Virus record (IMG/VR): IMGVR_UViG_3300006805_000023
Length of the DNA stretch: 64,000 nucleotides
Reading direction: 5' to 3' (one strand)
From: a virus
Taxonomy: Duplodnaviria; Caudoviricetes
Below are positions 23,080 to 59,421 of the stretch, one piece after another. The notes beneath the pieces were generated by a model. The model searched no databases, was not told where the DNA came from, and was given only the letters and a program-made list of their open reading frames with translations. The position numbers and the translations under genes were made by a program. Each line of letters starts with the position of its first letter. Position 1 is the first letter of the stretch.

Positions 23080-24396
23080 TTGAAGTGCTCATCCTGCAAC
23101 TCCCCGTCTAAGTCGCACAAGTCTGGCAAGTGCTCCGACTGTCGCCGTGATGGTTTCAAGGAAAGGTCACTGGCGATCTGGGACGACGCGGACGCCAAGG
23201 CTGCATGGGCAAAGTCGTGTACCTTCAAGCCGCGCTCAGCGCTGAACCAGCAGGTCGAGACTCTTCTAACCCGGCTCAATATTCACTACATCACCGAACA
23301 CGTCATCGGGCCATGGTCATTCGACGTGTTTATCCCGCACTGTGGCCTCCTGATCGAGTGCCAGGGCGAGTATTGGCACACGGTGTCCCGCAAGGAGCGC
23401 GCCGACCGGGCCAAGGCCACTTACGTGGAGTCGTACACCAAGCTGCGACTCCTGGAGGTGTGGGAGGTCGAGTTTTACAAGCAGGGGAGGCTGGAGTACC
23501 TGGTCAAGCGCGCCCTCGGACTCCTGGAAGTGCCTCCGCAGAGCAGCGTTGACTTCACGAAGCTCGACTGCCGGGTGGTTGATCGCCGCGACGCCAGCCA
23601 GCTTTACGGATCATCCCATTACCTTGGATCGTGCCGTGGCCGCTGGCACTTTGGTCTTTATCTGGGCGACCTTTTGATTGGCGCTTGTTCGTTCGGTCAG
23701 TTTCAGCGTAACGAGCAGACCCTCAAATACGAAGGAGCGTCGGAGCTTACCCGGTTCTGCATCGATTCGGCTTATCAAGTCAAGAACCTGGGGTCGTGGT
23801 TCCTATCACGCTCCCTCAAGCTCATCGGGGGTACCGTCGTAACCTATGCGGACCGCACCCAGGGGCATGACGGAGCGCTGTACAAAGCCACTAACTTCAC
23901 ATTCAGTCACGAGGTACCAAGCGATTACCACTACGTCGATCCGGGTGGTTGGGTGTTGCATAAAAAGACTGTCTGGAACCGGTCGGTGTCCATGAAGATG
24001 ACCGAGGCCGAGTATGCAGCTAAGCATGAGTTGTCGAAGAAATGGGGAGCTGCCAAGCTGTGCTTCATCTTCACGGGGACGCCTGCCCGGACGCACAAGA
24101 ACAAACCGCCAGTGCTGCAGCCGCGCAAGGTAGTCAGCGAGGTTGTCGGGAAGGTGGCTCAGCCCGTCCTTGATGTTGCCTTGATTCAGCAACTCAAGCT
24201 CGGCGGGACCTCTGCGGGAGCCCTGGCAACTCAGTTTAGCGTGTCCAGGGCTATGATCTTCCACACTGTGAAGCTTAGGCTCGTTGACTGTCACGAACAC
24301 GGTAAGCTCTGGTCCAAGAAGGACTCCTGCCCGAAATGCCGTGCTGTCCAGGGCTCTAAGGCTGGTGGTAAATGGGTCAAGGACGCGATGTCTTGA
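23080..24396 (+). CDS. Fusion of a DUF559/Vsr-like PD-(D/E)xK nuclease and a Mom-like GNAT domain
   Basis: WSFDVFIP..LIECQGEYWH; HYLG...ELTRFC...TYADRTQGHDGALYKATNF; N- and C-terminal Cys clusters. TTG start uncertain. Confidence 0.65.
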   Translation: MKCSSCNSPSKSHKSGKCSDCRRDGFKERSLAIWDDADAKAAWAKSCTFKPRSALNQQVETLLTRLNIHYITEHVIGPWSFDVFIPHCGLLIECQGEYWHTVSRKERADRAKATYVESYTKLRLLEVWEVEFYKQGRLEYLVKRALGLLEVPPQSSVDFTKLDCRVVDRRDASQLYGSSHYLGSCRGRWHFGLYLGDLLIGACSFGQFQRNEQTLKYEGASELTRFCIDSAYQVKNLGSWFLSRSLKLIGGTVVTYADRTQGHDGALYKATNFTFSHEVPSDYHYVDPGGWVLHKKTVWNRSVSMKMTEAEYAAKHELSKKWGAAKLCFIFTGTPARTHKNKPPVLQPRKVVSEVVGKVAQPVLDVALIQQLKLGGTSAGALATQFSVSRAMIFHTVKLRLVDCHEHGKLWSKKDSCPKCRAVQGSKAGGKWVKDAMS

Positions 24397-38724: not shown

Positions 38725-40305
38725 ATGCTGCCCTCCACCTCTCCCGTCCCCTCCCCACACGATCTGGTTTACCTTGAGCTGATGCGCCGTATCCGAGCGC
38801 ACGGTGACTACCGGATGGAACGCACCGGCACTGGTGCCTATTCGTTGTTCGCCCAGCAACTGCGCTTCGACCTGACGGACGGTAGCTTCCCGCTGCTGAC
38901 TACTAAGAAGGTCCACCTGCGCTCGATCATCCACGAGCTGCTCTGGTTCCTGAAGGGCGACACCAACATCAAGTACCTCAACGACAACGGCGTGACGATC
39001 TGGGATGAATGGGCCAACCCGGACGGCGACCTAGGACCTTGTTATGGCTATCAATGGCGTCAATGGGGGGAGTGGTCCACTCAGCGTTTGGAAAAGAAGG
39101 CACCTGTCGTTAAACGTCTGGAGGATGAAATCCCGCCTTTCTGCGACTACGATGTTTCCCTCCCTGAAGCCCCGGTCATTACCGATGCTGGCAAGGACGA
39201 GCGCAACCGCGCTCTCGTAAAGGTCGTGTTTCCACGTTCCTGCTACTCGTACACGATTCGAAAGGACCACGCCGAGAGGGGAGTGCGCGACCCCTATGCA
39301 CCGTCGAAGTGCGGAGTTGGCTGTCTCGGCGAGGATGAGAGGACGCTTGGGATTCCGGAGACAGTCCTCAAAAACCTCATCGCTTGCTGGAACAAAATGA
39401 TGGAACGCTGCTACGATCCGAAGTGCAAGGAATACAGGTTCTATGGTGCCATCGGAGTCAAGGTGTGCCGTCGCTGGCTCTGCAGATCCGCCTTCCTGAG
39501 CGACGCCACCAAGCTCCCGTGGTTTGAGCAAAAGTCGAAGGATCTGGCTGGATACCAGCTAGACAAGGACCATCTGGGAGACAGCACTTATTACTCGCCG
39601 ACCACCTGCGCTTGGGTTCCTGAGTGGGTTAACTCGGCTTACGCTCATACGCAGCCCTTCGTGGCGACAGCTCCGGACGGCACAGAGTATTATCACATTT
39701 CGCCTAGCGTGTTTGGCTCGATGCATCAATTGTCGGGGCATTCGATCTGCCGTTGTTTGCGTGGTGAGAGGCCTCACCATTTCGGCTGGAAGTTCTGCCC
39801 TGTTGAGGATCGAGGTCTGCGCTTTAGCTCCCCCACTGATCAGATCAAGCAGCTGGTCGAGGGCATCGTCAAAAGCCCTTACGGGAGACGCCACATTGTG
39901 TCGGCCTGGAATGTGAAAGACTTGCCCACGATGAAGCTCCCACCCTGCCATTGCCTGTTCCAATGCTTCGTCTCCTCGAAGGGCCGCCTGAGCCTCCACC
40001 TTTACCAGCGCTCCGCTGACTACCTGCTGGGCGTCCCCTTTAACATCGCGAGCTATGCGTTGCTGCTGCTCATGCTGGCTCAGGCCACTGGGAACAAGCC
40101 AGGCGAGCTGGTCATCACGTTCGGCGACGTCCACCTCTACTCCAACCATCTGGAGCAGGCCGACCTCCAGCTGTCCCGCGCCCCGTTCGGAGCGCCTCGA
40201 ATGGAGATCGGTGACTCAAAGGACATCTTCGGTTTCAAGTATGAGGACTTCAAACTGCTGGACTACACCTCCCATGCTTCCATCAAGGCCGCCATCGCCG
40301 TTTAG
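38725..40305 (+). CDS. thyA: Thymidylate synthase with in-frame endonuclease insertion
   Basis: RTGTG, FPLLTTKKV, ELLWFLKG, IWDEW, RRHIVSAWN, LPPCH, YQRSAD..LGVPFNIASY, GDVHLYSNH. Confidence 0.93.
   Translation: MLPSTSPVPSPHDLVYLELMRRIRAHGDYRMERTGTGAYSLFAQQLRFDLTDGSFPLLTTKKVHLRSIIHELLWFLKGDTNIKYLNDNGVTIWDEWANPDGDLGPCYGYQWRQWGEWSTQRLEKKAPVVKRLEDEIPPFCDYDVSLPEAPVITDAGKDERNRALVKVVFPRSCYSYTIRKDHAERGVRDPYAPSKCGVGCLGEDERTLGIPETVLKNLIACWNKMMERCYDPKCKEYRFYGAIGVKVCRRWLCRSAFLSDATKLPWFEQKSKDLAGYQLDKDHLGDSTYYSPTTCAWVPEWVNSAYAHTQPFVATAPDGTEYYHISPSVFGSMHQLSGHSICRCLRGERPHHFGWKFCPVEDRGLRFSSPTDQIKQLVEGIVKSPYGRRHIVSAWNVKDLPTMKLPPCHCLFQCFVSSKGRLSLHLYQRSADYLLGVPFNIASYALLLLMLAQATGNKPGELVITFGDVHLYSNHLEQADLQLSRAPFGAPRMEIGDSKDIFGFKYEDFKLLDYTSHASIKAAIAV
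39067..39834 (+). mobile_element. HNH-type homing-endonuclease-like domain inserted in frame in ThyA
   Basis: WNKMMERCY...YGAIGVKVCRRW, LDKD, YSPTTCAWV..VN, C-terminal SICRCLRG..HFGWKF; about 256 aa between QWRQW and TDQI. Confidence 0.8.
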
Positions 40306-41773: not shown

Positions 41774-43066
41774 ATGGCACCCGCTACAACACCACTCCCA
41801 CAAAACGTCCTCCCACCACGCGTCCTCAGCCCCGGCAAGATCGCCGCAGTCCTGGATGCTGGCTACGGCTCCTCTTCCAAAGGCCTCGTGTCGGCCTGGA
41901 TCACCAAGAACGAGCGCCCTGACTTCCTGCTCACCGCCAACGGTCGCAATTCCTCGCACACCGTGGTGGATAACTCCCTGAAGGCCTCCCGCGAGGCCAT
42001 GACACCATGCCAGCTCAAGGGCGAGTTCGTCTTCAAGGTCCTGCCGGTCGGAGCCTTCTACAACAAGTGGAAGGGCTACAACCCGATCATCTACATTGGC
42101 CCCGGTGCCGCTTTTACGGTCGAGGACCTCGTCAAGGAAATGAAGGCCTGCGAGCTGGACAAAACGCAGGTCTGGGTCCACCCGCTGGCATCGGTCGTCA
42201 CGGAGGCCGACATCGGCTATGAAAACGGCACTTGGGACTTCGACGGCAACCCACGCCCGCAGATCGACCACGACTCCGGCACCACCAAGCACGGCACCAC
42301 GGGCTCCGGCGTCGGAGCAGCTCGTGCCAAGAAGTCTCTGCGCAAAGGCAAGCAGTGGTATGATGTCTCCGACCAGCCTACGATGGGGCAGAGCGGCCTG
42401 ATGTTCGCCGACACCTTCGAAGAGGCCGTCCTGAAGCGCCTGGCTCTCGGCAAGACCGGCCTGCTGGACGGTTCTCAGGGTTACCTGCTGAGCCTCTACG
42501 GGAAGTTCTTCCCACACTGCACTTCACGCCCCGTCACCCTGGCCTCATTCTTCGCCGACATCAACCTCCCGGTCAGTGTGATCGGCAACGTCTGCGCGGT
42601 GGCCCGCACCTTCCCAATCCGGATCGCCAGCGTGCGCTATTTCCTGGACAACCAGCCCGTCACCCTCGCCGAGAAGGTCGAAGCGGAGTCGAGGGGCCTG
42701 TTCGTCAATACTGTGGACTCCAACTCCGGTGGCTGGTATCAGGACCAACGCGAGTTGACTTGGGAGCAGGTCAGCGAACAGGCCGGACGCCACATCGAGC
42801 CTCAGCTCACCAGTCTGACCAAGCTGCCACGTCGGATCGCCACGTGGTCCAAGGCCGCGATCCGCGATTTCCTGCTGCACAACGCCCCGCCGTGCGGCTG
42901 CAAGACTTACTTGTTTGTGACCTTCACGAATTATCTGAAGGGCTCCGAGATGAAGCACTGGATGCACCAGAACATCCATGAACTGGACGACGCCGTAACC
43001 GAGGTGCTACTGTCCGACTCCCCGGAGACTGACAGCGTGCTGCCACTGGTGCGGGACTTTGAGTGA
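41774..43066 (+). CDS. purZ: Divergent PurZ-type (adenylosuccinate synthetase family) ligase
   Basis: DAGYGSSSKG (Ser at the PurA catalytic Asp position), NSSHT, KVLP, DGSQG..LSL..FFPHCTSR, ARTFPIR, SGGWYQDQRELTWEQ, TSLTKLPRR, TFTNY. Confidence 0.8.
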   Translation: MAPATTPLPQNVLPPRVLSPGKIAAVLDAGYGSSSKGLVSAWITKNERPDFLLTANGRNSSHTVVDNSLKASREAMTPCQLKGEFVFKVLPVGAFYNKWKGYNPIIYIGPGAAFTVEDLVKEMKACELDKTQVWVHPLASVVTEADIGYENGTWDFDGNPRPQIDHDSGTTKHGTTGSGVGAARAKKSLRKGKQWYDVSDQPTMGQSGLMFADTFEEAVLKRLALGKTGLLDGSQGYLLSLYGKFFPHCTSRPVTLASFFADINLPVSVIGNVCAVARTFPIRIASVRYFLDNQPVTLAEKVEAESRGLFVNTVDSNSGGWYQDQRELTWEQVSEQAGRHIEPQLTSLTKLPRRIATWSKAAIRDFLLHNAPPCGCKTYLFVTFTNYLKGSEMKHWMHQNIHELDDAVTEVLLSDSPETDSVLPLVRDFE

Positions 43067-44151: not shown

Positions 44152-46548
44152 ATGTCCACTCTGATCACCGACCTCACCCAGCGCGACTACGACGCACATG
44201 TCCTAGCCCTGATCGCACGCGCTCGGGAAACCTCACCCGGACTCTGGAACTCGTGGTTTGAGGGCGACCTTGGCAAAGTCTTGGTTGACCTGATCGCGTG
44301 GGACAACAACGTGCTCGGTCTGATCGCCGATCAGCAGGTGCGCGAAGTGTCAGTTGACACCCTGCGTTTGCGTGAGTCGATCCTCCATCACGTGAGGCTC
44401 CACGGCTACTACGTTCGCCGCAACACTCCGGCTTCTCTGCGCGTCCAGGTTCTCGCCAGTTCAGCGCCAACTGCCCCAGACGTCCTACGCATCCGCAGCG
44501 GCCAGCGTGTCAATGCTGCAGACGGGAGCGTTTGGGAAGTGTCATCCGACTTCACGGTCAACTCAGGTGAGCTCTATCCGCGCACCGTGGTAACGTCTTA
44601 CGGGGAAATCGTGGTTCCCTCAGTCAACTCCGCTGGCGCTCAAGTCAACACGACCGCTCTGGTCTGCGTCCGCAAGGGTGAGTCATTCGCCACGCTGGTC
44701 GATCTGGAGCGCAATCGCCTCCCCAGCGACACCGGATTCGGCCCCAAGGTCGCTGCTGGCATGGTGCTGCGTCTCACTTCCCAGCTGCTGGGCTCGGCGT
44801 TCGGCGACGGCCCCGACATCACCAGAGATGAATACGCGGTTCTGTCGGTCGGCGGTTTGCCAGGCGACCGGGCTACCGGCTCAGTGCTCTACCTTGACCG
44901 TCCGTGGGACTTGGATGACTGGGTCGGCAAGTGGTCCATCGAAGACCGCACCATCGTGATCTCAAACGCTGAGACGATTGTGGAGACCTTCACGCTGGAC
45001 ACCGACCCATCACTCAGGGTGAGTGCTGCCATCCAGGGCTCGTTCGGACCGATCGTTGACTCGGGGGTCGAGGCCTTCAAGCGAGCTGGTGTGCTGGGCG
45101 CTACCCTGGAGGCCGCCTTCAACGGCTCCGGAATCAGTGTGTTGGTCAATGGTGTGTTGTGGGACGAGACGGCCTCCCTGCTGCTCGAAGGCTCGGCTGC
45201 TCAGGTTTATCAGGTGGACTTCGATCAAGACGACAAGGTCACGATCACGTTCGGCGACGGCGTGCGCGGTGCTGTTCCTCCAGCTGGCACCGTCACGATT
45301 CAGTACCGGGTCGGTGGTGGCGTCAGAGGCAACATCACGCCAGGCAACTTCCAAGGGGTCGTCACCGCATCCTCCTCCTCGCCGCTGTCCAATCAGGGCG
45401 TGTCCCTGACGCTTGCCAACCCCTACACGTTCGGCAACGGTGGGCAGGAGCGCGAGGGACTGGAAGCCATCAAAGCCAACCTGCGCAACTTCATCCGGGC
45501 CAACGACCGTGGGGTGTCGGATGAGGACTACGAGTCTCTGGCTGGCAACTTCACATCTGGCGGAGGCAGGATCGCCCTGGCTCGTGCCGTTCGCCGCACC
45601 AACACAGTGCCTAGGGAGCAAAACCTGATCTGGGTGCACGCCTGGGTTAAGGGTCCGGGTGGAGCGCTGATCGCCCCTGATCTGCAGCTCAAGACCGCCC
45701 TACTTGAATACCTCAATCGCCGCAAGATGGGGACTGACGAGGTTGTGATCGTGGATGGCCAGACAGTGCCAGTCCCGTTGATCCTGCGTTACCGCTACCG
45801 CAAGGGAGTGCCTCTTTGGGAGGCTAAGGAGGCTGTGGACGGCGCTGTTGCGACGGTCATGGAAGCACAGCTCCCCGGCAGAGACCTCGATTTGTCCGAC
45901 CTCTATCTGGCAGTACGCAAGCTCAACGTCATCGAGTCCGTGGTGTTCGACCACCCGGCTGCCATCCTTGAAGCCGGACCGGATACTCTGTTCGGCAACT
46001 CCGTGGTGCGCGGCGTCATGACTCAGCTGTCGTCCCCGGCTCGCTTGGGTGACAGCTCCATCGTGGTGGCTGACTACTCGATCTTCGGAGCCGGTCAGAC
46101 CGTCATGATCTACGAGGCCAACAAGACCCCAACGGTTGCCGTGGTTGACCAGGCCGCGTCTGGCGTGGTGAGCTTCCGGAGTGGCGTTTGTCAGGCCGAA
46201 TACACGAACGCAGCCGAGGTGTACAACACCCCCTACGCAGCCTACGGGTGGAACTCAGAGCGCCCCGTCACGGTGTTCGTCCGTTACTCCTCGAACCTTG
46301 AGCCAGGAATGCTCGACCAGCCCATCAGGTTCGCTCTGGAGACCTACTTCAACCGCAGGCTTCGCCCCGGCAAGTCGCTCCGCCGGTCCGTTCTGGAGCA
46401 ACTCGTGGCACAGATTTCCGGGATCTCCGCCGTGTCGGTGTTCCTGAACCGCTACGACTCGCAGGTCGAGGAGGTCACAGTCACCACCGACGAGCAGGTA
46501 GTTATGGCGGGGCTCGTCGTCAACGGGGTCTCGCTCCAGGCAACTTGA
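44152..46548 (+). CDS. Baseplate wedge protein (T4 gp6 / baseplate J-like)
   Basis: RDYD, LVDLIA, RES, ITFGDGVRGAVPP, YRVGGGVRGN, GG.EREGLEAIK, RGVS.EDY. Confidence 0.85.
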   Translation: MSTLITDLTQRDYDAHVLALIARARETSPGLWNSWFEGDLGKVLVDLIAWDNNVLGLIADQQVREVSVDTLRLRESILHHVRLHGYYVRRNTPASLRVQVLASSAPTAPDVLRIRSGQRVNAADGSVWEVSSDFTVNSGELYPRTVVTSYGEIVVPSVNSAGAQVNTTALVCVRKGESFATLVDLERNRLPSDTGFGPKVAAGMVLRLTSQLLGSAFGDGPDITRDEYAVLSVGGLPGDRATGSVLYLDRPWDLDDWVGKWSIEDRTIVISNAETIVETFTLDTDPSLRVSAAIQGSFGPIVDSGVEAFKRAGVLGATLEAAFNGSGISVLVNGVLWDETASLLLEGSAAQVYQVDFDQDDKVTITFGDGVRGAVPPAGTVTIQYRVGGGVRGNITPGNFQGVVTASSSSPLSNQGVSLTLANPYTFGNGGQEREGLEAIKANLRNFIRANDRGVSDEDYESLAGNFTSGGGRIALARAVRRTNTVPREQNLIWVHAWVKGPGGALIAPDLQLKTALLEYLNRRKMGTDEVVIVDGQTVPVPLILRYRYRKGVPLWEAKEAVDGAVATVMEAQLPGRDLDLSDLYLAVRKLNVIESVVFDHPAAILEAGPDTLFGNSVVRGVMTQLSSPARLGDSSIVVADYSIFGAGQTVMIYEANKTPTVAVVDQAASGVVSFRSGVCQAEYTNAAEVYNTPYAAYGWNSERPVTVFVRYSSNLEPGMLDQPIRFALETYFNRRLRPGKSLRRSVLEQLVAQISGISAVSVFLNRYDSQVEEVTVTTDEQVVMAGLVVNGVSLQAT

Positions 46549-47315: not shown

Positions 47316-48755
47316 ATGACACAAGGAGCAGTCTTCTTCACGTGCGGGTCTAGCCATTGCGAGCGCCTGCTGGTAGCCATTCATTCACTTCGTCTGCAGC
47401 ACCCGCTGCTGCCGATCGCCGTAATGGCGCTGGACGACGGCAAGGCCCCTGCAGGGTTCTTCGATCACCTGCAGCAGGACAACGTGCAGGTGATTATGTT
47501 CGACCCGCAACCGGGATACAGTGCGCTGTGCCATAAGATCCGGTCGCTGCATTACGCCCCGTTCGACATCAACCTCTTCATCGACGCCGATATGGTCATC
47601 ATGGCTCCGCTCGATGAAGCCTTCAAGGTCGTCTCGGAGTCAAAGACTGTAGGCCTCGCCTTCGTGAACTTCGCGAACTGGCGCTCAGACGGCAACTCGA
47701 TCAGCAAGCGCATCCGGAGGTTTGCTGGGTTGATCGACAGCCACGCGATCGAAGCCGCAATCCAGCATGGCCCAGCCATCAACGTGGGTTCGTTCGTGTT
47801 CCGTCGTGGTCACCGCTTCCTGCAGGAGTGGGAGGACGGCACCGTGCTCGGAGCCAGGCACCGCGTGTTCATCCCCGACGAGATCTACGCGCAGGTCTCA
47901 TTGCCGCAGCTGGTCGCACTCGGCGAGGCTGTGGTACTCGGCCCTGAATGGGGTGAGTCGGTCCGTTACCCGGTCTGCAAAGAACCGAAGATCGTCCACT
48001 ACCACGGCGACAAGCATGATGGCAAGTATCCGCTGTGCGACGTCTGGCGCAAGATGCGCGACCAGAGCAAGTCCGGCAAGTTCCAGTACGCCGACAACAC
48101 TTTGGTGGTAGCGGTCGATGCAGCTTACTACAAGACCTTCTCCAAGTCTCTGGCGAACTGGCGTCAACACAACGTCATGAACGGCCTGCGCACCCTTCTG
48201 ATCCACGACGGGTCGTTGACTCAGGAGCAGATCGACCAGACCGGTTTCGAGCGTGCCGTGGTATACCAGAACCCACACACCAAGACCCAGCGCGCCCTGA
48301 TGCTCAACAGCTTCATGTTGTGCGCCCCGTTCGAGGTCGAGACCCCTTACTGGACCAAGCTCGATGCCGATTGTCAGGTTAGCCCGGAGACGCGCCTGTT
48401 TGAGTCCGCAAAATGGCGCGGCTACGACGTGGTGTCACACCGATGGGGCTACACCAAGCCAGCCGCTTGGGTCCCGACCTTGGAAGCATGGCGCAAGTCC
48501 AAAGGCGTCGGCAAGCAGTTCATCCAGGACTGGGAGTTTGACGCGCAGGCTGAGAATCGCACCTTCAGATCGGCCCGCATCCAGAGCTTTGCGTGCTTCC
48601 ACAACACCGCCTCATCCAGGGCCATGGCTGCTCCGGCGGTGGCCGACGGAGTCCTCCCGGTGCCTTCGCACGACACCTATCTGTGGTTCATGGCCGAGGC
48701 TCTCGGCTACAAGATCGAAAGGGTGAACTTGCACAAGTGGGGCTTCCGCCATTAA
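47316..48755 (+). CDS. Two-domain GT-A glycosyltransferase
   Basis: FIDAD DxD motif, IVHYHG, second WTKLDADC motif. Confidence 0.7.
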   Translation: MTQGAVFFTCGSSHCERLLVAIHSLRLQHPLLPIAVMALDDGKAPAGFFDHLQQDNVQVIMFDPQPGYSALCHKIRSLHYAPFDINLFIDADMVIMAPLDEAFKVVSESKTVGLAFVNFANWRSDGNSISKRIRRFAGLIDSHAIEAAIQHGPAINVGSFVFRRGHRFLQEWEDGTVLGARHRVFIPDEIYAQVSLPQLVALGEAVVLGPEWGESVRYPVCKEPKIVHYHGDKHDGKYPLCDVWRKMRDQSKSGKFQYADNTLVVAVDAAYYKTFSKSLANWRQHNVMNGLRTLLIHDGSLTQEQIDQTGFERAVVYQNPHTKTQRALMLNSFMLCAPFEVETPYWTKLDADCQVSPETRLFESAKWRGYDVVSHRWGYTKPAAWVPTLEAWRKSKGVGKQFIQDWEFDAQAENRTFRSARIQSFACFHNTASSRAMAAPAVADGVLPVPSHDTYLWFMAEALGYKIERVNLHKWGFRH

Positions 48756-48763
48756 GTATCCGG

Positions 48764-49036
48764 ATGCGAACCGCTGACCAGCTCGTTGAAAACCTCCTCA
48801 ACGAAGAGCCCAAAACCCCGGTGGTGGATTTTAATGACCCAGCCTTGCACGAGGCTGCAACCGAACATGGTGTTGCCCTGACACAAAGGCACGTCTCTTT
48901 GTGGAACAAGGAGGGCAACTTCGCCAAGATCCCGCTTCTGACGTCCCAGTTACTTGACTGGTTCTCAAACCATCGAAGCGCTGACTATTCGTTCGAGACC
49001 TACTTGGCAGAGGATCAGCCCGGAGAAGACGAGTAG
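48764..49036 (+). CDS. Small acidic protein with head-targeting-like leader
   Basis: MRTADQLVENLLNEE; TAAGTAT 4 nt upstream. Confidence 0.55.
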   Translation: MRTADQLVENLLNEEPKTPVVDFNDPALHEAATEHGVALTQRHVSLWNKEGNFAKIPLLTSQLLDWFSNHRSADYSFETYLAEDQPGEDE

Positions 49037-49052
49037 AGTTCTTAGACGCTGC

Positions 49053-50948
49053 ATGACGCAGCTCCTCGAACTCGAACTCTTTCAATTCTTCGCCCTTCGG
49101 CACGTAACCATACGACTTGACAATCAAGGACGTGTCCTAGTGGTCGGCCCCAACGGTGCCGGTAAAACCGCGATGCTGATCGAAGGCCCTTATTACGCCC
49201 TGTTCGGCCAATCCTTTGAGTACGGGCCGAGACCGGGTGACTCAGTGGGCAACCGGTTCCACAAGTCCTTCCTGACCCGCATCGACTTTGAGACCGCTGG
49301 TCAGACCTACCGGGTGATCCGGACTCAAGGAGTCAAGGAGTGCCAGGGGCTCAAGCTCAACCGCAACGGCCTGTTCCTGTTCAGGCAGGAGGAGCGCCAC
49401 CAGAGTCAGTGGGTTGATATGAGTCTGTCCAAGGCGGTTGACACCCAAGCGGCTATTGACCGGCTGGTAGGGATGACCGCTCTGACCTTCACGAACACCA
49501 CGACGTTCAGCTCAGACGTGCTGCGGCTGCCTGACTTCCCAGATGCAGAGAAGAAGCGCATCATCAACGACCTGCTCGGAGTCGGGAGCTGTGACACTGC
49601 CCTGAAGACCACCACCAAAATAATCGCCGACATCAACCAAGAGGTCACCCTCAAGGAGGCCTTGCATGCTGTCACCAACAACTCGGTGAAGGACGCAGTC
49701 AGGCGGGTAGCTTCTCTGGAAGAATCGGCCCTGGAGTGGCAGGAGGAACTGGAGCGCAAGGCGCAGGAGTTGGCCACCCGCAAGGAGCGCCTGGCTTCCG
49801 ACTTGAAGCTCAAGGAGGACTCACTGGCAGCCCTGACCTCAAAGACCGCCAGCGCCCGACTCTCCATCACAGAGTCCAAAGAGAAAATCATCGTGCACCG
49901 TAAGCGAATCAAGCGCTTGTCTGAGCTGTCCGACCAGTCCAAGCTGGACAAGCCTGGACTGGGCGACTCTGGCCGGATTCGCCAGAAGCTGGATGCGGCT
50001 AAGTCTGGGGCCTGTTCAGAGTGCGGCAAGCCGTTTGACGAGAAACTGGAGCCAGAGAAGCACGCCAAGCACGTCAAGGGGTTGCTCGATGAACTCGCGG
50101 CAGCCGTAGCTAAGGAGAAGCAGGAAATGGCTGACTGGAAGGTCACAGATGACGCCGTGAACAAGCGCAGGGCCAAAGAGATCTCGGATCTCGACACTGA
50201 GGAGTTGAGTCTGGAGTCAGCCAACGAAACGGTTATCAGGCTGGACCGACAGGTAGCAGAGACTGACGCTCGGATCTTTTCGCTCAAGGAGCAACTGGCG
50301 CAGGCCGACGAAGACCCGCCGGAGCAGCAGACCAACCCGCACGAGGCGCAGCTCAAGAAGGCCACCGAGGAGCTGGAGGAGTACCGCGCAAGTTCCGCCA
50401 CAACAGCAGAGCAGCTACAGGTCCTCAAGGAACGCTTGTCCAAGGAGAAGCTGTTCCAGGAGTTGTTCGGCAACCGTGGGTGCCGGGTCAACCGCCTGGA
50501 TGCTGCCCTGCCCTTCCTGAACGAGAAATGCGCCGAGGTGTCCAAGCAGCTGCAGACCGGAATCAACACCAGCTTCGTGATCCGTGGTGAGGACGAGTCC
50601 TACGCTAACACAGTGGAGGTCGTGGTGGACAACCCAATGGGGGCTGGTCAGTATCATGGCAACAGCGCTGGTGAGCGCCGTCTGGCCGACCTGATCATTC
50701 TGTTTTCGTTGCTCTCCCTTGCCACAGCGAGCCACGGGGCGATCGGTCAGGCCTTCTTCGACGAGACGTTCGAGAAGCTGTTCCCATCCATCAAGAACAA
50801 CGTCATGAAGGTCATCGGGGCCGTCAACCAGCAACGCAACTCCGTCTTCATCATCTCGCACGTAACCGAGGGACTGAGCCTGGAGCTGATCGACCAGATC
50901 TGGTCGGTAGCGAACGGGGAGATTGAGGTGGAAGACAGGCGAGGCTAG
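49053..50948 (+). CDS. SbcC/Rad50/gp46-like SMC ATPase
   Basis: GPNGAGKT, coiled coil, CSEC zinc hook, NSAGE signature, FFDE Walker B, ISH. Confidence 0.9.
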   Translation: MTQLLELELFQFFALRHVTIRLDNQGRVLVVGPNGAGKTAMLIEGPYYALFGQSFEYGPRPGDSVGNRFHKSFLTRIDFETAGQTYRVIRTQGVKECQGLKLNRNGLFLFRQEERHQSQWVDMSLSKAVDTQAAIDRLVGMTALTFTNTTTFSSDVLRLPDFPDAEKKRIINDLLGVGSCDTALKTTTKIIADINQEVTLKEALHAVTNNSVKDAVRRVASLEESALEWQEELERKAQELATRKERLASDLKLKEDSLAALTSKTASARLSITESKEKIIVHRKRIKRLSELSDQSKLDKPGLGDSGRIRQKLDAAKSGACSECGKPFDEKLEPEKHAKHVKGLLDELAAAVAKEKQEMADWKVTDDAVNKRRAKEISDLDTEELSLESANETVIRLDRQVAETDARIFSLKEQLAQADEDPPEQQTNPHEAQLKKATEELEEYRASSATTAEQLQVLKERLSKEKLFQELFGNRGCRVNRLDAALPFLNEKCAEVSKQLQTGINTSFVIRGEDESYANTVEVVVDNPMGAGQYHGNSAGERRLADLIILFSLLSLATASHGAIGQAFFDETFEKLFPSIKNNVMKVIGAVNQQRNSVFIISHVTEGLSLELIDQIWSVANGEIEVEDRRG

Positions 50949-50953
50949 TTTTC

Positions 50954-51841
50954 ATGATGGACCGAAAGATTATCATCGGGGGCCTCCCCCACCACGGCAA
51001 GACCACCATAGCAGGCATCATCGCGAGCAGGTTCGGAGTGACCTTCGCGAACACCTCGGACACCATCTACGAGCAGGTCGCCAAGGACTACGGCAAGACC
51101 GTCGAGGAGGTCCACGCGATGGATAAGGAGAAGCTGCGCCCGGAGCTGATCTTCGTGGGCGACACTCTGTGCAAGGTGCACGGCCTGGCCTATCTGACCC
51201 TGAAGCAGCTCGAAAAGCACGACGTGGTGTGCGGCGTCCGCAAGCCGCAGGAGCTGGCTCTGGTCCGGGCCGCCTATCCCAACTGCCTGTTTCTATGGGT
51301 GATCCGCCCCGGCTATCCGACGATCAAGGATAGCACCCAGCTTTCCCACAAGGACGCTGATCTGGTGATCATGAACGCGGGATCGGTCTCCGACCTGGAG
51401 TCACAGGTAACGTCTGGACTGGTCAACAACAGCCTGGGTCTGAGCCACCCCGGCAACAGCTTGTGGAACCTGCTGCACTGGTTCGCCTTCCAGCGTGACT
51501 GGAACGCACTGGAGCGCACCAACTTCATGCAGGCCTTTGAAACCCTGCTGTTCATCACCGGCAAGTCCTGCCCGTGCGCCATCGAGTTCCAGGCGATCAA
51601 GAAGGTCCTTCCGCCTCCGGCTGGGCACGACGAGTTCTGGAACTGGACTTTGCTGGTGCACGACTGGGTCAACTATAAGCGCGGCGTGCCTACCCACTGG
51701 GACTGGACCCAGGGCCATCCAGGGTTCAAGATCCTCAAGGAGGCGTTCTCATCTGGAACCGCCGAAGGCATCCTGTCCGGCACCTCTGTCCCAACCCAAC
51801 CAGCAACCGACCTCACTTACTGCGCGCCATGCTCAAAATAA
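50954..51841 (+). CDS. dNMP kinase-like P-loop domain fused to an Erv1/ALR-like sulfhydryl oxidase domain
   Basis: GGLPHHGKTT, GVRKPQE, IMNAGSVSDL; then GNSLWNLLHWFA, CPCAIEF, W..LVHDWVNYKRG, terminal CAPC. Confidence 0.65.
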   Translation: MMDRKIIIGGLPHHGKTTIAGIIASRFGVTFANTSDTIYEQVAKDYGKTVEEVHAMDKEKLRPELIFVGDTLCKVHGLAYLTLKQLEKHDVVCGVRKPQELALVRAAYPNCLFLWVIRPGYPTIKDSTQLSHKDADLVIMNAGSVSDLESQVTSGLVNNSLGLSHPGNSLWNLLHWFAFQRDWNALERTNFMQAFETLLFITGKSCPCAIEFQAIKKVLPPPAGHDEFWNWTLLVHDWVNYKRGVPTHWDWTQGHPGFKILKEAFSSGTAEGILSGTSVPTQPATDLTYCAPCSK

Positions 51842-52602
51842 CAACCAACAGCCTCAACCAGGAGCAGCTTAAGGAGCTGTTCGGAAACCACCTCGAAGTG
51901 TGCGTGTCAGTCCACAACTTTGAGCGTCGGTGGTGCTGGCAGCTGTCCAGCCTGCTCGAACAGGGAGCGCCGGTCCTGGTGACGGCAGCCTACATTATGG
52001 GCACCGGCACTCCGATGGTGTCAGAGGTGGCCGATTACTTCAACGCGATCAACCCTGGTAATCTTTACGTGCGCACCATGATGTACCCGGATCACGAGCG
52101 CTTCCAGTTTCGCGGTCTGGTTCGCACCGATCAAGTCAAGGTATCGGTCGGTAAGCGCCTGCTATTCACGGACGCTGACATGCTGGTACCCCCTGGCTGG
52201 TGTGAGGCCGCACTCAACCCTGAGTTCCCGGACCACCTTTGCTTGCACACGGGACGGTACTCCACGCTCTTGGACGAGACCAACCGGGTTGTAAATGGTC
52301 TGGAGTACCCGGTGCGCGTCGTGAGTGCCTGGGACACAGTGTCCGGAATGGAGGCTGTCAGGATGGCCGACATCGGTGCCGGATTCTGCCAGATCATCGG
52401 CGGCGACTTCATCCGCGACCGTGGCTACTACGTCAAGGAGGAGGAGAACCGCGACGGGCGCTGGGAAAAACGTGCTGTGTATCGCTCAGACAAGCAGTTC
52501 CGAGTCTCCACGGGCAAGCAGGCGGTACCACTCCCTTACATGTTCCATCTTCAACATGAGCGCGACACCACAGCAGGCTGCCACCTTACCCACCAGCGCT
52601 AA
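51829..52602 (+). CDS. GT-A (GT2-like) glycosyltransferase
   Basis: LLFTDADM DxD motif, GFCQI, FHLQH. Confidence 0.7.
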   Translation: MLKITTNSLNQEQLKELFGNHLEVCVSVHNFERRWCWQLSSLLEQGAPVLVTAAYIMGTGTPMVSEVADYFNAINPGNLYVRTMMYPDHERFQFRGLVRTDQVKVSVGKRLLFTDADMLVPPGWCEAALNPEFPDHLCLHTGRYSTLLDETNRVVNGLEYPVRVVSAWDTVSGMEAVRMADIGAGFCQIIGGDFIRDRGYYVKEEENRDGRWEKRAVYRSDKQFRVSTGKQAVPLPYMFHLQHERDTTAGCHLTHQR

Positions 52603-52897
52603 GCCGCTGGTCCTAGCCTGGACGGCACCGGCACCCCCGGATTCAACCTGCAGCTACGATCACTCCACGGCGGAGACGCTGTTTGGGCGCTTCTTGATAA
52701 CCTGGAAGGGCTGGAAGATTCTGCCCGAAAATCTGGCGTGGGGTGAGAGCCCAGGCGATCCTGGATACACGCTTGATGAGACCCCGTGGGGTGAGTTTGA
52801 GTGCAGGGGGTGGGACTCCCTAGAAGAAGTCCAGAGGTGGGCGGAGGACGAGCTGGAGCGTCGGATGCGGCTCCAGCTCGAAAAGTTCACCGCTTAG
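52556..52897 (+). CDS. Hypothetical protein
   Basis: Trp-rich ORF (YDH...ITWKGWK); start uncertain. Confidence 0.5.
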   Translation: MSATPQQAATLPTSAKPLVLAWTAPAPPDSTCSYDHSTAETLFGRFLITWKGWKILPENLAWGESPGDPGYTLDETPWGEFECRGWDSLEEVQRWAEDELERRMRLQLEKFTA

Positions 52898-53910
52898 AGG
52901 ATCGAGAGCCTGCTGGTTGACAGGTGTTCCATGACGTCCTTGCGATCCTGATCACACCACCGGCAGTCGGCCATGTTTTGAAACACCAGATCGTGCTCCT
53001 TGGCGACGTTGGTACCCAGAAGCACCGGGTTGTCAGAGTTGATGGTGACTGGGATCTGCAGGCGTGCTGCCACAACCAGGGCCGTGTTAAGCTCCTGCTT
53101 GGAGATGGTCTCAGTCCGCAGGCAGGCCGTCGGGCAGACCTCGAAAGTGACCTTGCGCAGCCGCTCCATCTCTGGCTCATTCAGCTTGATGTGAGCAAGC
53201 GATTTGAGCAGGTCCAGGCCGTGGCCGATCCGCGTAACGCCCCCGATGACGTCCAGGACGTTCAGGACGTTCATCCCAGTGTCACGTGCTTCACCGACGT
53301 GGTAGGTCAGGAACAGACCCTTTGAGTAGGCTTCGTGGAGGGGAGGCAGCATGTTCCTGGCAATCCAGTCCTTGTCGCGCTCCTGACCGGTCTCGGTCCC
53401 GCAGATGTCGAAGCCGTCGGCACCGGCCTCAATGGCAGCACGCACGGAGCCCCACAGGACCGAGACCGGTTCACGCCGGTCCGCGCACACGATCAAACGG
53501 GTCGAAATCCCGTGGCAGTCACCGGCGTCGCTGAGTCCCTGACGGGCCGCCCGGATCAGTGGCACCAGCATGTCTGGGCCACGCCGGTAGGGATCGAAGC
53601 GCATGTCGATGTGCTGCAGCTTACCGCCGGTCATCAGGTACTGGTGGACCACGGCCTCGAAGCATGAGCGCCTCACGGCGTCCGGACCCTGCTGAATGTC
53701 CTCCACCATGGCGTGAGGACCGCTCTTACGGCTCAGAAACTCATCATGAGTGGTCGTGTTGTGCTTGGTCTTGGTCATCAATTCCTCCAGTTCAATCGAG
53801 CTGAGCATGGCCAGCTTGCGCCCGGACCGGTAGGCCAGCTCCCAGAGGATGTGTGGTGGAGTTGAGCCACCGAGGTGGCAGTGAAAGTCACAGTATTTAG
53901 TTTGCTGCAT
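52894..53910 (-). CDS. Adenosine/AMP deaminase-family amidohydrolase
   Basis: DFHCHLGGS, MRFDP, GFDICG, TYHVGE, RIGHG, EVCPT, INSDNP. Confidence 0.85.
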   Translation of the reverse strand: MQQTKYCDFHCHLGGSTPPHILWELAYRSGRKLAMLSSIELEELMTKTKHNTTTHDEFLSRKSGPHAMVEDIQQGPDAVRRSCFEAVVHQYLMTGGKLQHIDMRFDPYRRGPDMLVPLIRAARQGLSDAGDCHGISTRLIVCADRREPVSVLWGSVRAAIEAGADGFDICGTETGQERDKDWIARNMLPPLHEAYSKGLFLTYHVGEARDTGMNVLNVLDVIGGVTRIGHGLDLLKSLAHIKLNEPEMERLRKVTFEVCPTACLRTETISKQELNTALVVAARLQIPVTINSDNPVLLGTNVAKEHDLVFQNMADCRWCDQDRKDVMEHLSTSRLSIL

Positions 53911-54877
53911 AGACGGTTCCAAGTTTGATGCGTTCCTCGATTTTTGTGCGGTTGACTTCGGCCAGTTTCTCCACTGTGATCCCAAGCTCGTTGGCGGTGG
54001 CTACCAGATAAAACAGCACGTCGCTAAGCTCGTCAAGCATCCGGTCTTTTGCGCGGTGGCCGAGATCACTGGCGCTGACCTGGGAGCTGTTGATACGGCG
54101 CATCACCTTTTGAACCACTCCGAGGACCTCGCCGCCTTCGCTGGCGAGCCCGGAGGTCGTGTAAACCAGTCCGGACGGGTACTGGGCTACTCGTTTGACC
54201 CAGCCCTGGTAGGCGTCGAGCTGAGCAATCATGGTGTCCTCCTCAAGGGTGAACTCCATCGTGCAGCCACGGTCCGGCGGTGGCGAGGTGCGCAGCCGCA
54301 TCCCGAAGGACACCGCCTCCTTGGCGAGGAAGGCCACCAAGTGCGTGCTGGTGAGGTCTGAGTCCTGCACAGTGAGCACTCCAGTTTCCAGCTCGACCGT
54401 GGCGGTCGGGAAGTTCTTCTGCAGCAAGATGGCGAGCTTGCCAGCTACCACCTGAAGGGACGGCCCGAATGACACCGTGGCCCCGTTCTCGAACAGAGAT
54501 GAGAGGTCTGGGCGCGTGTAGCCCTCACCCTTGATCCACTTACCAGTAGGGTCGGCCAGATGGCCGGTCTCCGGGTCGCCCTTGGTGCAGTTTGAGCGGT
54601 GCACCTCGTCCCAGGCCAGCTGCATCACCGGAGCGATGCCGAGCCGGTTGGCAAGCTGGAAGATGAACACCAGCGCGTCGATCAGACAGTCGGTCGTGTG
54701 GGTCAGGCGCTCCCGTTCCGTCGGGAGGTCCTTGGCCTCGTCCAGCTCGGTCTGCAGCTCCTCCTTGAAAAAGGCCTGGTAGGTTTGAACGACGCTGGCG
54801 TCGAAGACGGGTTTGCCTGCCAGCGGGATTCTCCACTTTTCGGCAAAGGCGCGGATGTCGGATAGTTGATTGACCAT
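53897..54877 (-). CDS. Tandem MazG-like (all-alpha NTP pyrophosphohydrolase) two-domain protein
   Basis: Domain 1 EELQTELDE..IDALV..DEVHRSN..K..GKWIK..Y..PDL; domain 2 GLASEGGEV..DELSDVLFY..N..KIEER; overlaps deaminase start by 14 nt. Confidence 0.8.
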   Translation of the reverse strand: MVNQLSDIRAFAEKWRIPLAGKPVFDASVVQTYQAFFKEELQTELDEAKDLPTERERLTHTTDCLIDALVFIFQLANRLGIAPVMQLAWDEVHRSNCTKGDPETGHLADPTGKWIKGEGYTRPDLSSLFENGATVSFGPSLQVVAGKLAILLQKNFPTATVELETGVLTVQDSDLTSTHLVAFLAKEAVSFGMRLRTSPPPDRGCTMEFTLEEDTMIAQLDAYQGWVKRVAQYPSGLVYTTSGLASEGGEVLGVVQKVMRRINSSQVSASDLGHRAKDRMLDELSDVLFYLVATANELGITVEKLAEVNRTKIEERIKLGTVYAAN

Positions 54878-54901
54878 CCACACCAGAAAGCACTATAAGC
54901 C

Positions 54902-57097: not shown

Positions 57098-57447
57098 ACA
57101 ACCTCACCGCGCTACTCAAGACCGTCGAGCTTGATGAAAGCCACTTCTCCGACTGGGGTACTGGGGAGTCCGGTTACCTCCAGCTGTCCGATGTCGAGGA
57201 GCTGCTCCAGAAGCTCATCGTCGAAAACTCCTGCGTCGGCAAGCATGGTAAGCACGAACTCGTCAGCATCTTCAGCCAGAACGACGGCCCGGATGGTGTC
57301 TCCAAAGAAGTGCGCTGGTGCAGCCGCTGTGGCGCGGTCGTGATTGATCGCGACGACGGTAGCCGCACCTTCCCAGGTGCAGCTATGAAAATGCGCCACT
57401 CCACATTGTCCCAAGCCGTCCACAACCTCACCCAGATCGCCCCATGA
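57094..57447 (+). CDS. Hypothetical protein with Cys/His motif
   Basis: C.GKHGKH...WCSRCG; ATGA overlaps. Confidence 0.6.
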   Translation: MNNLTALLKTVELDESHFSDWGTGESGYLQLSDVEELLQKLIVENSCVGKHGKHELVSIFSQNDGPDGVSKEVRWCSRCGAVVIDRDDGSRTFPGAAMKMRHSTLSQAVHNLTQIAP

Positions 57448-58040
57448 AAACCGCCCTGCTTGTCTCCCTCTCGCTGCTTCTCGCCTCATGCTGCTACGAC
57501 TCAGCACAGCTCACCGTTTCGACCGGACCCAGCTACCGCAACCCGCTGCTGTGGAACCGCCCCAACCTGACGTGGGCAGTTGACTATTCGACGGTGCCGG
57601 TCGGGTTGTCTGGGCGGTGCGGCCTGGACGGGGCGGTGCAGGAGTGCTTGCGTCCGTGGGAGTCCTCTGGCGTGTTCCGCTTCACCCAGGCCACACAGGG
57701 CGTCCGGCCCGACATCAGGATCGGCTTCCGTGATCTCGGCTGCAACAACGACCACGCCGGTCGGGCCGGGTTTCCGTGGACTGCTGATCGCGGCCAGATC
57801 TGGCTCAACTCCCAGCAAAACTGGAGCACCGGCTGGTCGTTGACGGCCTGCCAGCTGGGCGACTGGCTGCCGCATGAAGTCGGCCACTCTCTGGGCCTGC
57901 TGCACACCAGCTCGTGCAGCTCTTGCATGCAAGAGCATGGACCCTATGGGAAACCGACCCACCACGACCTGCAGACGCTCCGCCGCGTCTATGCGCCAAC
58001 GACCGTGGTGCACCCGGTGTTTGGGCCGTTGGTCCGTTAA
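57444..58040 (+). CDS. Matrixin/M10-like zinc metallopeptidase lipoprotein
   Basis: Lipobox LLASC; HEVGHSLGLLH..M zinc motif; DIRIGF. Confidence 0.85.
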   Translation: MKTALLVSLSLLLASCCYDSAQLTVSTGPSYRNPLLWNRPNLTWAVDYSTVPVGLSGRCGLDGAVQECLRPWESSGVFRFTQATQGVRPDIRIGFRDLGCNNDHAGRAGFPWTADRGQIWLNSQQNWSTGWSLTACQLGDWLPHEVGHSLGLLHTSSCSSCMQEHGPYGKPTHHDLQTLRRVYAPTTVVHPVFGPLVR

Positions 58041-58278: not shown

Positions 58279-59421
58279 ATGAAAACCCTCGTCATCCTGT
58301 CCACCATTATCGGCATCGCCATCGGCGTGGGTTCCGCCTGCGCAGCCCCGACCCCTCACGTGACCGCCACGTGGGGAGGAGACTATGTTAAGCTCATCGA
58401 GATCAAGACCGGCAAGACCTGGCTTGAGTCCTACGACGACTTTTTCGCCAAGTGCGGCAAGCACAAGCCGTCTGAGCTTGGCGTGAAGGTCATGGGGCGT
58501 CTGCCAAGCTGGTATAAAGGGAGAGGGTCACAGCCACCCAAGACACGCGGCCTGAAACCAGCCCCTCCAGAAGAGCCGGTTGTCGCACCCCTCATTGAAT
58601 CAGGCAGCAACCCGGTCAACCCACTACTGCCTGACATCGCACCAAAGACAATCGGCTTGCTCGATGCCTTCAAGTCGATGATAACCGGTGCCGAGCCGGA
58701 GTTCACCATGGGTGAGGACCAGCGCCAGCGAATCGTCCCAGAGACGGAAGGCTACACCTTGATCCCAGGAATGGAGAAGCCAGCCGCCCGCACCAGAGGG
58801 CTTAAGAAGGAGCCGGAGCCAAGCATCTCCGACAGGGTTGTCGCAACAATCGACGGCGTGAAGGTTTACTCGCTCCTGACCGAGGACCCGGCACCAAGCA
58901 CGGAGCCAGCCAGAAAGTCAGGAGTCATTGCCGGTAACGCCGTCACGATCACCCCAACCTACGACGTGAGGTATCCGGCTGTCGTCACCCCCTACGCACT
59001 CGATGCCCTGTTCAAAGGCGAACTGGCGGGGATGGGCGAGGTCTTCATCCGCGAGGCCAAGAAGAACAACATCTGCCCACTGTTCCTGGCTGGCGTAGCA
59101 ATGCACGAGTCCGACTCTGGCAAGAGCTACCTGTGCCGCAACAACAAAAACGCCTTCGGCTCCTACGACTCCAAGCACAAGGTGTATCGGTCGTTCCCGA
59201 ACATTGAGGCTTCCATCGCCTTCACGGCCTCTCAGCTCAACAGCAGCCTTTACGTGCTCAACAAGAAGAAGATGTGCCACACCATCAGGCAGATTCATGA
59301 TGTTTACTGCCCGATCGGAGCTGGCAACGACCCCAAGAAGGTCAACAAGTTCTGGTCGAGCGGCGTCGTTTACCACATGCAGCGCTTTCTTGGACCCACC
59401 GTTTACGTAGCCTCCAACTGA
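58279..59421 (+). CDS. Secreted protein with C-terminal glucosaminidase/lysozyme-like domain
   Basis: Signal peptide; F..EAKKNNI.PLFLAGVAMHES..G....NAFG; YCP.GA.NDP..VN.FW. Confidence 0.7.
   Translation: MKTLVILSTIIGIAIGVGSACAAPTPHVTATWGGDYVKLIEIKTGKTWLESYDDFFAKCGKHKPSELGVKVMGRLPSWYKGRGSQPPKTRGLKPAPPEEPVVAPLIESGSNPVNPLLPDIAPKTIGLLDAFKSMITGAEPEFTMGEDQRQRIVPETEGYTLIPGMEKPAARTRGLKKEPEPSISDRVVATIDGVKVYSLLTEDPAPSTEPARKSGVIAGNAVTITPTYDVRYPAVVTPYALDALFKGELAGMGEVFIREAKKNNICPLFLAGVAMHESDSGKSYLCRNNKNAFGSYDSKHKVYRSFPNIEASIAFTASQLNSSLYVLNKKKMCHTIRQIHDVYCPIGAGNDPKKVNKFWSSGVVYHMQRFLGPTVYVASN

Follow-up and report, generated by a model that had tools for sequence, protein, structure and literature searches.

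A T4-like phage gene that joins a predicted deoxynucleoside monophosphate kinase to a divergent CxC domain of the Erv/ALR superfamily

Introduction

Erv/ALR sulfhydryl oxidases are taken to belong to eukaryotes and to the large DNA viruses that infect them. Here we analyze a gene that joins a domain of this superfamily to a nucleotide kinase, located at positions 50954..51841 (+) of a 64,000-nucleotide stretch of DNA (hereafter the window) from the virus record IMGVR_UViG_3300006805_000023. The source is a large uncultured T4-like phage, and the longest contig encoding the protein (P0001) measures 218 kb. A reading of the sequence alone had proposed that this gene encodes a deoxynucleoside monophosphate (dNMP) kinase fused to an Erv1/ALR-like, flavin adenine dinucleotide (FAD)-dependent oxidase with an unusual CxC site, which would form disulfides in the cytoplasm of the infected cell.

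A review of where the Erv/ALR family PF04777 occurs names just a few bacterial groups and double-stranded DNA viruses (PMC10598087). The chemistry itself can proceed in bacteria, as yeast Erv1p drives the making of disulfides in the cytoplasm of E. coli (PMC8601162). We found no paper on bacteriophage-encoded Erv enzymes, and a tblastn search of 50,697 deposited phage genomes, with P0001 and two relatives in which the Erv domain stands alone as queries, gave no Erv match save a misfiled Mollivirus.

Results

The gene is a single open reading frame (ORF) of 295 codons and a stop, which direct inspection of the DNA letters showed to be unbroken. Its N-terminal part (aa 1-155; 50954..51418 (+)) is delimited as a T4 gp1-type dNMP kinase domain by phrog_139, an alignment with 1DEK and a structure model, and is followed by an inter-domain linker (aa 156-164; 51419..51445 (+)), placed by a segment of low predicted local distance difference test score (pLDDT; residues 163-168) in the full-length model. 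An Erv1/ALR-like four-helix domain of the FAD-binding type (aa 165-262; 51446..51739 (+)), defined by a family profile, PF04777 and the model, comes next, and a C-terminal tail (aa 263-295; 51740..51838 (+)) closes the protein. The motifs quoted by the sequence-only reading are all present: the P-loop GGLPHHGKTT (aa 9-18; Walker A, 50978..51004 (+)); GNSLWNLLHWFAF (aa 167-179), with the helix-1 motif GNSLWNLLH (51452..51478 (+)); CPCAIEF (aa 206-212), whose two cysteines are read from TGC CCG TGC at 51569-51577; WTLLVHDWVNYKRGVP (aa 231-246), with HDWVN at 51659-51673; and, at the C-terminus, YCAPCSK, in which CAPC (aa 290-293; 51821-51832) lies two residues ahead of the stop. None of these motifs varies among six proteins that are 61-83% identical, and the residues G, W, L, C-x-C, H, D and N are unchanged even across 20 relatives whose identity falls to about 27%. 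Such conservation implies that the motifs are more than chance.

The sequence-only reading had raised the possibility of a missed stop; a frameshift, or neighbouring genes joined into a chimera during assembly, would be artefacts of a similar kind. We found the same kinase-Erv build in eight proteins (P0001-P0008) from differing samples and assemblies, including one NCBI assembly and several Logan runs, down to 37% identity: the six proteins mentioned above, and two whose Erv parts are about 37-45% identical. The Erv domains of the eight form one group in the tree (support 100/100). This conservation rules out a missed stop as the cause of the fusion. With a continuous frame, a G+C content at third codon positions of 0.83 throughout (usual for coding frames of this window, whose overall G+C is 59%), and an architecture shared by eight proteins from independent samples, an artefact of any of these kinds is barely credible. 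Judged from these sequences, the fusion is real and selected.

For the Erv half, only 16 relatives came out when 1.84 billion cluster representatives were searched exhaustively; three of these represent fused proteins of 279-300 aa, and the remainder are mostly stand-alone proteins of 100-150 aa. A 20-sequence alignment of the family (A2) served as the basis of the family profile and of the residue counts given below. When compared to solved chains, the A2 profile matched yeast Erv1 (8e-17), Arabidopsis Erv1 (2e-16), ALR (about 6e-15), pB119L of African swine fever virus (ASFV; 3e-10) and Erv2 (9e-10), with these matches spanning almost the whole domain; mimivirus R596 was matched at 1.5e-5. 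PF04777 was matched by all 20 members of A2 (best E 3.9e-15). In PHROGs, no family corresponded to the Erv domain of P0001. An AlphaFold model of the domain, built with the A2 alignment, reached a pLDDT of 84 and a predicted template modelling (TM) score of 0.77, with helices at residues 166-178, 185-203, 207-218, 225-242 and 256-267. The best 23 Foldseek matches of this model were Erv-family structures without exception, with a TM score by target of at most 0.67, in a kind of search where helical bundles score easily; an independent scan (VIA, 48,161 chains) also returned Erv-family structures as its best six (Z 6.6-8.7), led by pB119L (Z 8.7). The earlier assignment of an Erv1/ALR domain is thus borne out by the profile matches to the Erv chains (8e-17 to 9e-10), by PF04777 across the family and by the four-helix fold of the model. 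The lack of a four-helix Erv fold in profile and structure searches, which had been named as one finding that would overturn it, was looked for, and the Erv fold was found instead. We regard homology to Erv/ALR and the Erv fold, as supported by profiles and models, as settled.

Alignment with yeast Erv1, for which a list of FAD-contact residues is available (PMC4721541), showed that the following contacts are kept in P0001: G167 (Erv1 G91), W171 (W95), C208 (C133), F212 (F137), H236 (H162) and V239 (V165). Other Erv1 residues retained are H99, W157 and N166, which correspond to H175, W231 and N240. The helix-1 motif thereby supplies G167, W171 and H175, and H236-D-W-V-N240 (51659..51673 (+)) takes the place of the helix-4 HNxVN (Erv1 H162, N163, V165 and N166). 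The kept contact positions, together with N240 and H175, show little or no variation among the six close homologs or across the 20 relatives. Erv1 R92 is changed to N168, and the CX16C structural disulfide of Erv enzymes is absent from P0001.

A further departure is at the redox site itself, where alignments with solved Erv chains upheld the unusual CxC noticed earlier. In place of the CxxC that defines Erv1/ALR, P0001 carries C206-P-C208 (51569..51577 (+)), located in the model at the N-terminus of helix 3. Erv1 C130 and C133 align with C206 and C208 with one residue deleted between them (compare CNWC, CREC and CEEC of Erv1, AtErv1 and ALR), so that the second cysteine is in register with the flavin-proximal C133 and the exposed interchange cysteine is shifted one residue nearer. 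Both cysteines of the site are invariant (20/20), and their CxC spacing is found in 19 of the 20 relatives, the exception being P0015 with CGSC. Because the defining CxxC is lacking, we do not count the domain, on the evidence of alignments and model, as a canonical member of the Erv/ALR superfamily, but assign it to a divergent branch with CxC.

In cellular Erv enzymes the shuttle disulfide is a CxC, CxxC or Cx4C pair carried on a flexible segment (PMC3509050). The tail of P0001 holds a candidate for such a dithiol, C290-A-P-C293, set within a YCxPC that all six close homologs share amid otherwise variable tail sequence. A cysteine pair is found in the tail of all eight fused proteins (as CxPC, or as CC in P0007 and P0008) and at the C-terminus of 15 of the 20 relatives; the other five keep the CxC without tail cysteines. 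Modelled with low confidence (pLDDT 50-62), the predicted flexible tail pair fits a shuttle role.

We also predicted a dimer by folding residues 160-295 in duplicate together with FAD. It scored 0.83, whereas the best among three controls gave 0.00. Of 30 solved pairs of one chain, 21 come up to that mark, and of 23 solved single chains none does; these counts apply only roughly here, since FAD was included as a ligand. The runs agreed in 100% of contacts, with a partner pLDDT of at least 81, and placed the interface on helices 1-2 (residues 161-202), the usual interface of the Erv family. Since Erv/ALR dimers have already been solved, the prediction may reflect family likeness and need not be independent evidence.

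Turning to the kinase half, residues 1-154 were matched by phrog_139 (deoxynucleoside monophosphate kinase) with E 6e-14; PF21448 (DNMK) gave 17.8 bits, under its cut-off of 27.1. A profile of the six close homologs (A1) matched 1DEK, the structure of T4 gp1, with E 0.0026, and in this profile the block VCGVRKP.EL...R....LFLWVIRPG...D.DLVI.N.GS..DLE aligns with gp1. The full-length model (pLDDT 78) shows a P-loop NMP-kinase fold and matches P-loop small-molecule kinases, 1DEK among them, and P-loop residues G10, H14, G15 and K16 are invariant even when non-fused phage homologs are included. Taken together, the phrog_139 match, the motif block and the modelled fold agree with the dNMP kinase proposed from the sequence, and point to a small, divergent kinase of the gp1 type in this half. 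In view of a PurZ-like gene in the window (see below), candidate substrates are dGMP, dTMP and the monophosphate of 2-aminoadenine deoxynucleoside (dZMP).

The kinase module was also seen in two cultured phages, fused to MazG in Rhodobacter phage RcRudolph (L012:1892-3016) and to ThyX in Ruegeria phage vB_RpoP-V13 (L013:2483-4003). Both records name the fusion after the partner alone and leave the kinase half unannotated.

The gene neighbourhoods of the stand-alone relatives were informative about possible substrates. In five loci (L003, L005, L006, L007 and L009) the stand-alone Erv gene lies directly downstream of one family of proteins of about 321 aa, which contain 11-23 cysteines (3.4-7.2%) where the protein is complete (L003:5033-5998, L006:2850-3836, L009:4030-4995, L005:1-570 and L007:1-372). 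The genes of this family lie where a block of genes on one strand ends, and the proteins match nothing in Pfam or PHROGs. In L008, the gene directly upstream of Erv encodes 571 aa with 32 cysteines. The flanking genes of the stand-alone loci mostly have 0-1% cysteine, apart from a 359-aa gene further upstream in L003 (4.2%). The family of about 321 aa is likely a dedicated disulfide-rich substrate of the stand-alone Erv. The fused copy differs from these relatives in having no cysteine-rich neighbour, in lying within a block of DNA-metabolism genes and in being joined to a kinase.

In one relative, P0018, the Erv domain is fused to a cysteine-containing N-terminal region. We considered this region as a relative of the cysteine-rich neighbours, which would have made a Rosetta-stone link, but no similarity between them could be detected, and the link is thus not supported. 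Searches for further loci added little: IMG/VR viral contigs (A1, A3) and JGI metagenome contigs (A3, A1) were nearly empty, GTDB genomes yielded only the already known contig of a Verrucomicrobiaceae metagenome-assembled genome, a word-indexed search with the A2 profile added eukaryotic ALRs only, and when 13 kb of sequence surrounding the gene was compared with phage genomes by megablast, nothing was found.

Putting these data together, we lean towards a bifunctional, dimeric protein in which a dNMP kinase is combined with an FAD thiol oxidase, electrons passing from the tail to the CxC and on to FAD, as the predicted fold and conserved residues would allow. The kinase domain would turn dNMPs into deoxynucleoside diphosphates (dNDPs) for phage DNA synthesis, and the Erv domain most likely still binds FAD and acts as a thiol oxidase. 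Following dimerization through Erv helices 1 and 2, the flexible C290-x-P-C293 would take two electrons from a substrate dithiol and hand them to the C206-P-C208 disulfide, probably that of the other subunit, with C208 placed beside the flavin and C206 acting as the interchange cysteine; the reduced FAD would then be re-oxidized by O2 or another acceptor. The outcome would be disulfide formation in the reducing bacterial cytoplasm, much as in the engineered CyDisCo system. FAD binding, oxidase activity, electron path and substrates of P0001 are all inferred here. By analogy with the stand-alone relatives that lie beside cysteine-rich proteins, the substrates are probably phage proteins. Disulfides of virion proteins, as a product of the fused enzyme, we infer by the same analogy only, since the fused clade sits among nucleotide and replication genes and has no cysteine-rich structural neighbour.

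Several observations weigh against this reading, and the first group of them concerns the domain itself. On the single sequence of P0001, PF04777 reaches 20-22 bits (22.2 at best), under the gathering score of 27.6, and the E-values of the Foldseek matches are weak (0.1-1). The position of Erv1 N163 is taken by D237, with D in 20 of 20 relatives, although N163, conserved in the HNxVN of Erv enzymes, is outside the list of FAD contacts. Erv1 K171 corresponds to V245, this position being V in the fused clade and K in most stand-alone relatives, and a 5-residue insertion ahead of the CxC obscures the equivalent of Erv1 Y128. To our knowledge, there is no Erv enzyme with a CxC beside the flavin. 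One alternative is that the Erv domain has lost its oxidase chemistry. It would then act as a scaffold on which the kinase dimerizes, or would bind flavin or a metal, with four cysteine ligands for zinc or an iron-sulfur cluster coming from the CxC and the CxxC of the tail. The absence of the canonical CxxC, the change of N to D, the loss of the K171 equivalent in the fused clade and the strong predicted dimer through Erv helices all speak for such a role, as does the fact that T4 gp1 is itself a dimer, and the four conserved cysteines could make one metal site. However, the G, W, H, both site cysteines, H, D and N remain invariant across the 20 proteins, and the flavin-contact positions are kept, which is more than a scaffold needs. 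A four-cysteine site could also not be general, given the five relatives that have the CxC but no tail cysteines, and the pairing of the family with cysteine-rich proteins favours thiol chemistry. We consider a domain without oxidase chemistry quite improbable.

The genomic setting lies on the same side of the balance. The fused clade is accompanied by nuclease, deaminase, MazG, PurB-like, ThyX and helicase genes, and the kinase module's relatives in other phages are fused to MazG and ThyX, a hint that nucleotide metabolism is the usual business of the proteins joined to this module. A hidden Markov model of the cysteine-rich partner family found no homolog in the 64-kb window, and the cysteine-rich large proteins of the window are intein- or HNH-bearing enzymes. 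A second alternative is that the Erv domain does its redox work in nucleotide metabolism and not on virion proteins, oxidizing a thioredoxin/glutaredoxin-type carrier or a phage enzyme, or switching its own kinase through the clade-specific cysteines C73 and C93, which would tie dNDP supply to oxygen or redox state. In the window, as in L001 and L014, the fused gene lies among an SbcC-like nuclease, a deaminase and MazG, and in the distant locus of P0008 (L015) it lies near a PurB-like lyase, helicases and ThyX. The partners of the kinase homologs in RcRudolph and phage V13 are nucleotide enzymes, C73 is present in all aligned fused proteins and absent from two non-fused homologs, and one stand-alone relative is found about 1-3 kb from genes for dCMP deaminase, ribonucleotide reductase and thioredoxin. 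Yet no known step of deoxynucleoside triphosphate (dNTP) synthesis needs a thiol oxidase, and ribonucleotide reductase requires reduced, not oxidized, carriers. C93 is lost in P0008 but present in the non-fused RcRudolph protein; the nearest relatives with informative context suggest cysteine-rich protein substrates; and gene neighbourhoods in T4-like phages are mosaic, with a baseplate-wedge gene (44152-46548 (+); family match) only about 4.4 kb upstream of the fusion. We hold a redox module for nucleotide metabolism to be unlikely. It is a long shot, in our judgement, that the protein represents a phage-specific Erv clade with a strained CxC in place of the universal CxxC, joined to a kinase in PurZ-type T4-like jumbo phages, that acts as a redox-gated kinase and not as a virion-folding enzyme; in that case oxygen or the redox state of thiols would switch the kinase or its dNTP-synthesis complex.

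The fused gene is closely packed between its neighbours. An SbcC/gp46-like nuclease subunit (48954..50948 (+); phrog_77, E 3e-65, and AAA_23) ends 5 nt ahead of the fusion ATG, and a glycosyltransferase of the GT-A (family 2-like) type, 257 aa long (51829..52602 (+)), overlaps the fusion stop by 13 nt. The SbcC-like gene is syntenic in L001 and L014, the overlap with the glycosyltransferase gene is found in these two loci as well, and the loci of close relatives are syntenic with the window. The glycosyltransferase was recognized by an Atlas feature (score 0.98) and by structure (TM 0.73 to Glycos_transf_2 clusters), with no match in Pfam, PHROGs or NCBIfam. Its target could be protein or, just as well, DNA. 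Further away are a PurZ-like synthetase (41774-43066 (+); phrog_1211), an adenosine-deaminase-like gene (52894-53985 (-); family match) and a double MazG (53897-54883 (-); family match). The combination of these three suggests a 2-aminoadenine-type purine pathway, in which the fused kinase might phosphorylate dZMP. A scan of the window for CxxC motifs of the thioredoxin/glutaredoxin type returned a zinc-ribbon-like ORF only.

The sequence TANNTAT, considered as a late-promoter element, is enriched in the window (23 occurrences, as compared to 8.5 expected). None lies directly ahead of the fusion gene, the nearest being at 48753-48759 (+), two genes upstream, at the stop of a 480-aa gene. This element may drive a block composed of a small gene, the SbcC-like gene, the kinase-Erv gene and the glycosyltransferase gene.

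Other genes of the window are mentioned here for completeness. The thymidylate synthase (38725-40305 (+); PF00303, 2e-107) is interrupted by about 190 inserted residues (~175-363) that carry an HNH endonuclease; the insertion resembles an intein or one made by a homing endonuclease. A 1093-aa protein with 24 cysteines (1130-4411 (+)) has a weak match to the terminase large subunit and an internal LAGLIDADG (residues 316-396), and is probably intein-bearing. A protein of 438 aa and 15 cysteines (23080-24396 (+)) contains a Mom-family DNA-modification domain (PF25680, 1e-16) and matches HNH/homing-endonuclease PHROGs. Finally, a matrixin-type zinc metalloprotease (57444-58040 (+); Peptidase_M10, 3e-12; 198 aa, 8 cysteines) adjoins a gene for a glucosaminidase-domain protein (58279-59421 (+)), and the two products are probably lysis or cell-wall enzymes.

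Discussion

If the Erv half of this protein is active, phages can form disulfides in the reducing bacterial cell unaided, as a natural counterpart of CyDisCo. The CxC site would in that case be a natural experiment on the importance of the flavin-proximal CxxC geometry, and a CxC enzyme could give a more oxidizing catalyst for the production of disulfide-bonded proteins in bacteria. The conserved fusion is also a testable puzzle, because no link between thiol redox and DNA precursors explains it.

Among described systems, the kinase half is closest to T4 gp1 (1DEK; PF21448; phrog_139), with which it shares the P-loop, the NMP-kinase fold and the block R..E...R......V.RPG....D.DLVI.N.GSL..L. 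It differs from gp1 in length (about 155 aa, as compared to 241 aa), in the clade-specific motifs NTSDTIY and GD.LC, and in carrying an Erv domain.

The Erv half, as modelled, has the four-helix bundle and fifth helix of the cellular enzymes Erv1 (4E0H, 3W4Y), AtErv1 (2HJ3), ALR (1OQC, 3MBG) and Erv2 (1JR8). It has in common with them the G..W...H of helix 1, an aromatic residue four positions past the proximal cysteine and the W...H.xVN of helix 4, as well as, by prediction, a head-to-tail dimer through helices 1-2; with Erv2 and AtErv1 it also shares a cysteine pair on a flexible tail. Unlike the cellular enzymes, the phage domain has CxC (19/20) at its redox site, a 5-residue insertion, HD for HN and no CX16C, and P0001 is phage-encoded and kinase-fused. 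In Erv2 the site is reportedly CxxC and the tail pair C-G-C (described by Gross et al. in 2002), so that the CxC site and CxxC tail of P0001 reverse the order of the two motifs.

Virus-encoded Erv enzymes for a reducing cytoplasm are known from eukaryotic viruses, namely ASFV pB119L (3GWL), mimivirus R596 (3GWN, 3TD7), vaccinia E10R and baculovirus Ac92, and in this P0001 resembles them; R596 and Ac92 likewise bear extra fused domains. These enzymes serve in eukaryotic hosts, keep the CxxC and are linked to virion morphogenesis, whereas P0001 belongs to a phage of a bacterial host and has a CxC and a metabolic kinase as partner. By sequence, the cellular Erv1/ALR enzymes (about 1e-16) are nearer to the phage family than are the viral pB119L (3e-10) and R596 (1.5e-5). 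What is new here, as compared to all of these systems, is the fusion to a kinase and the CxC site.

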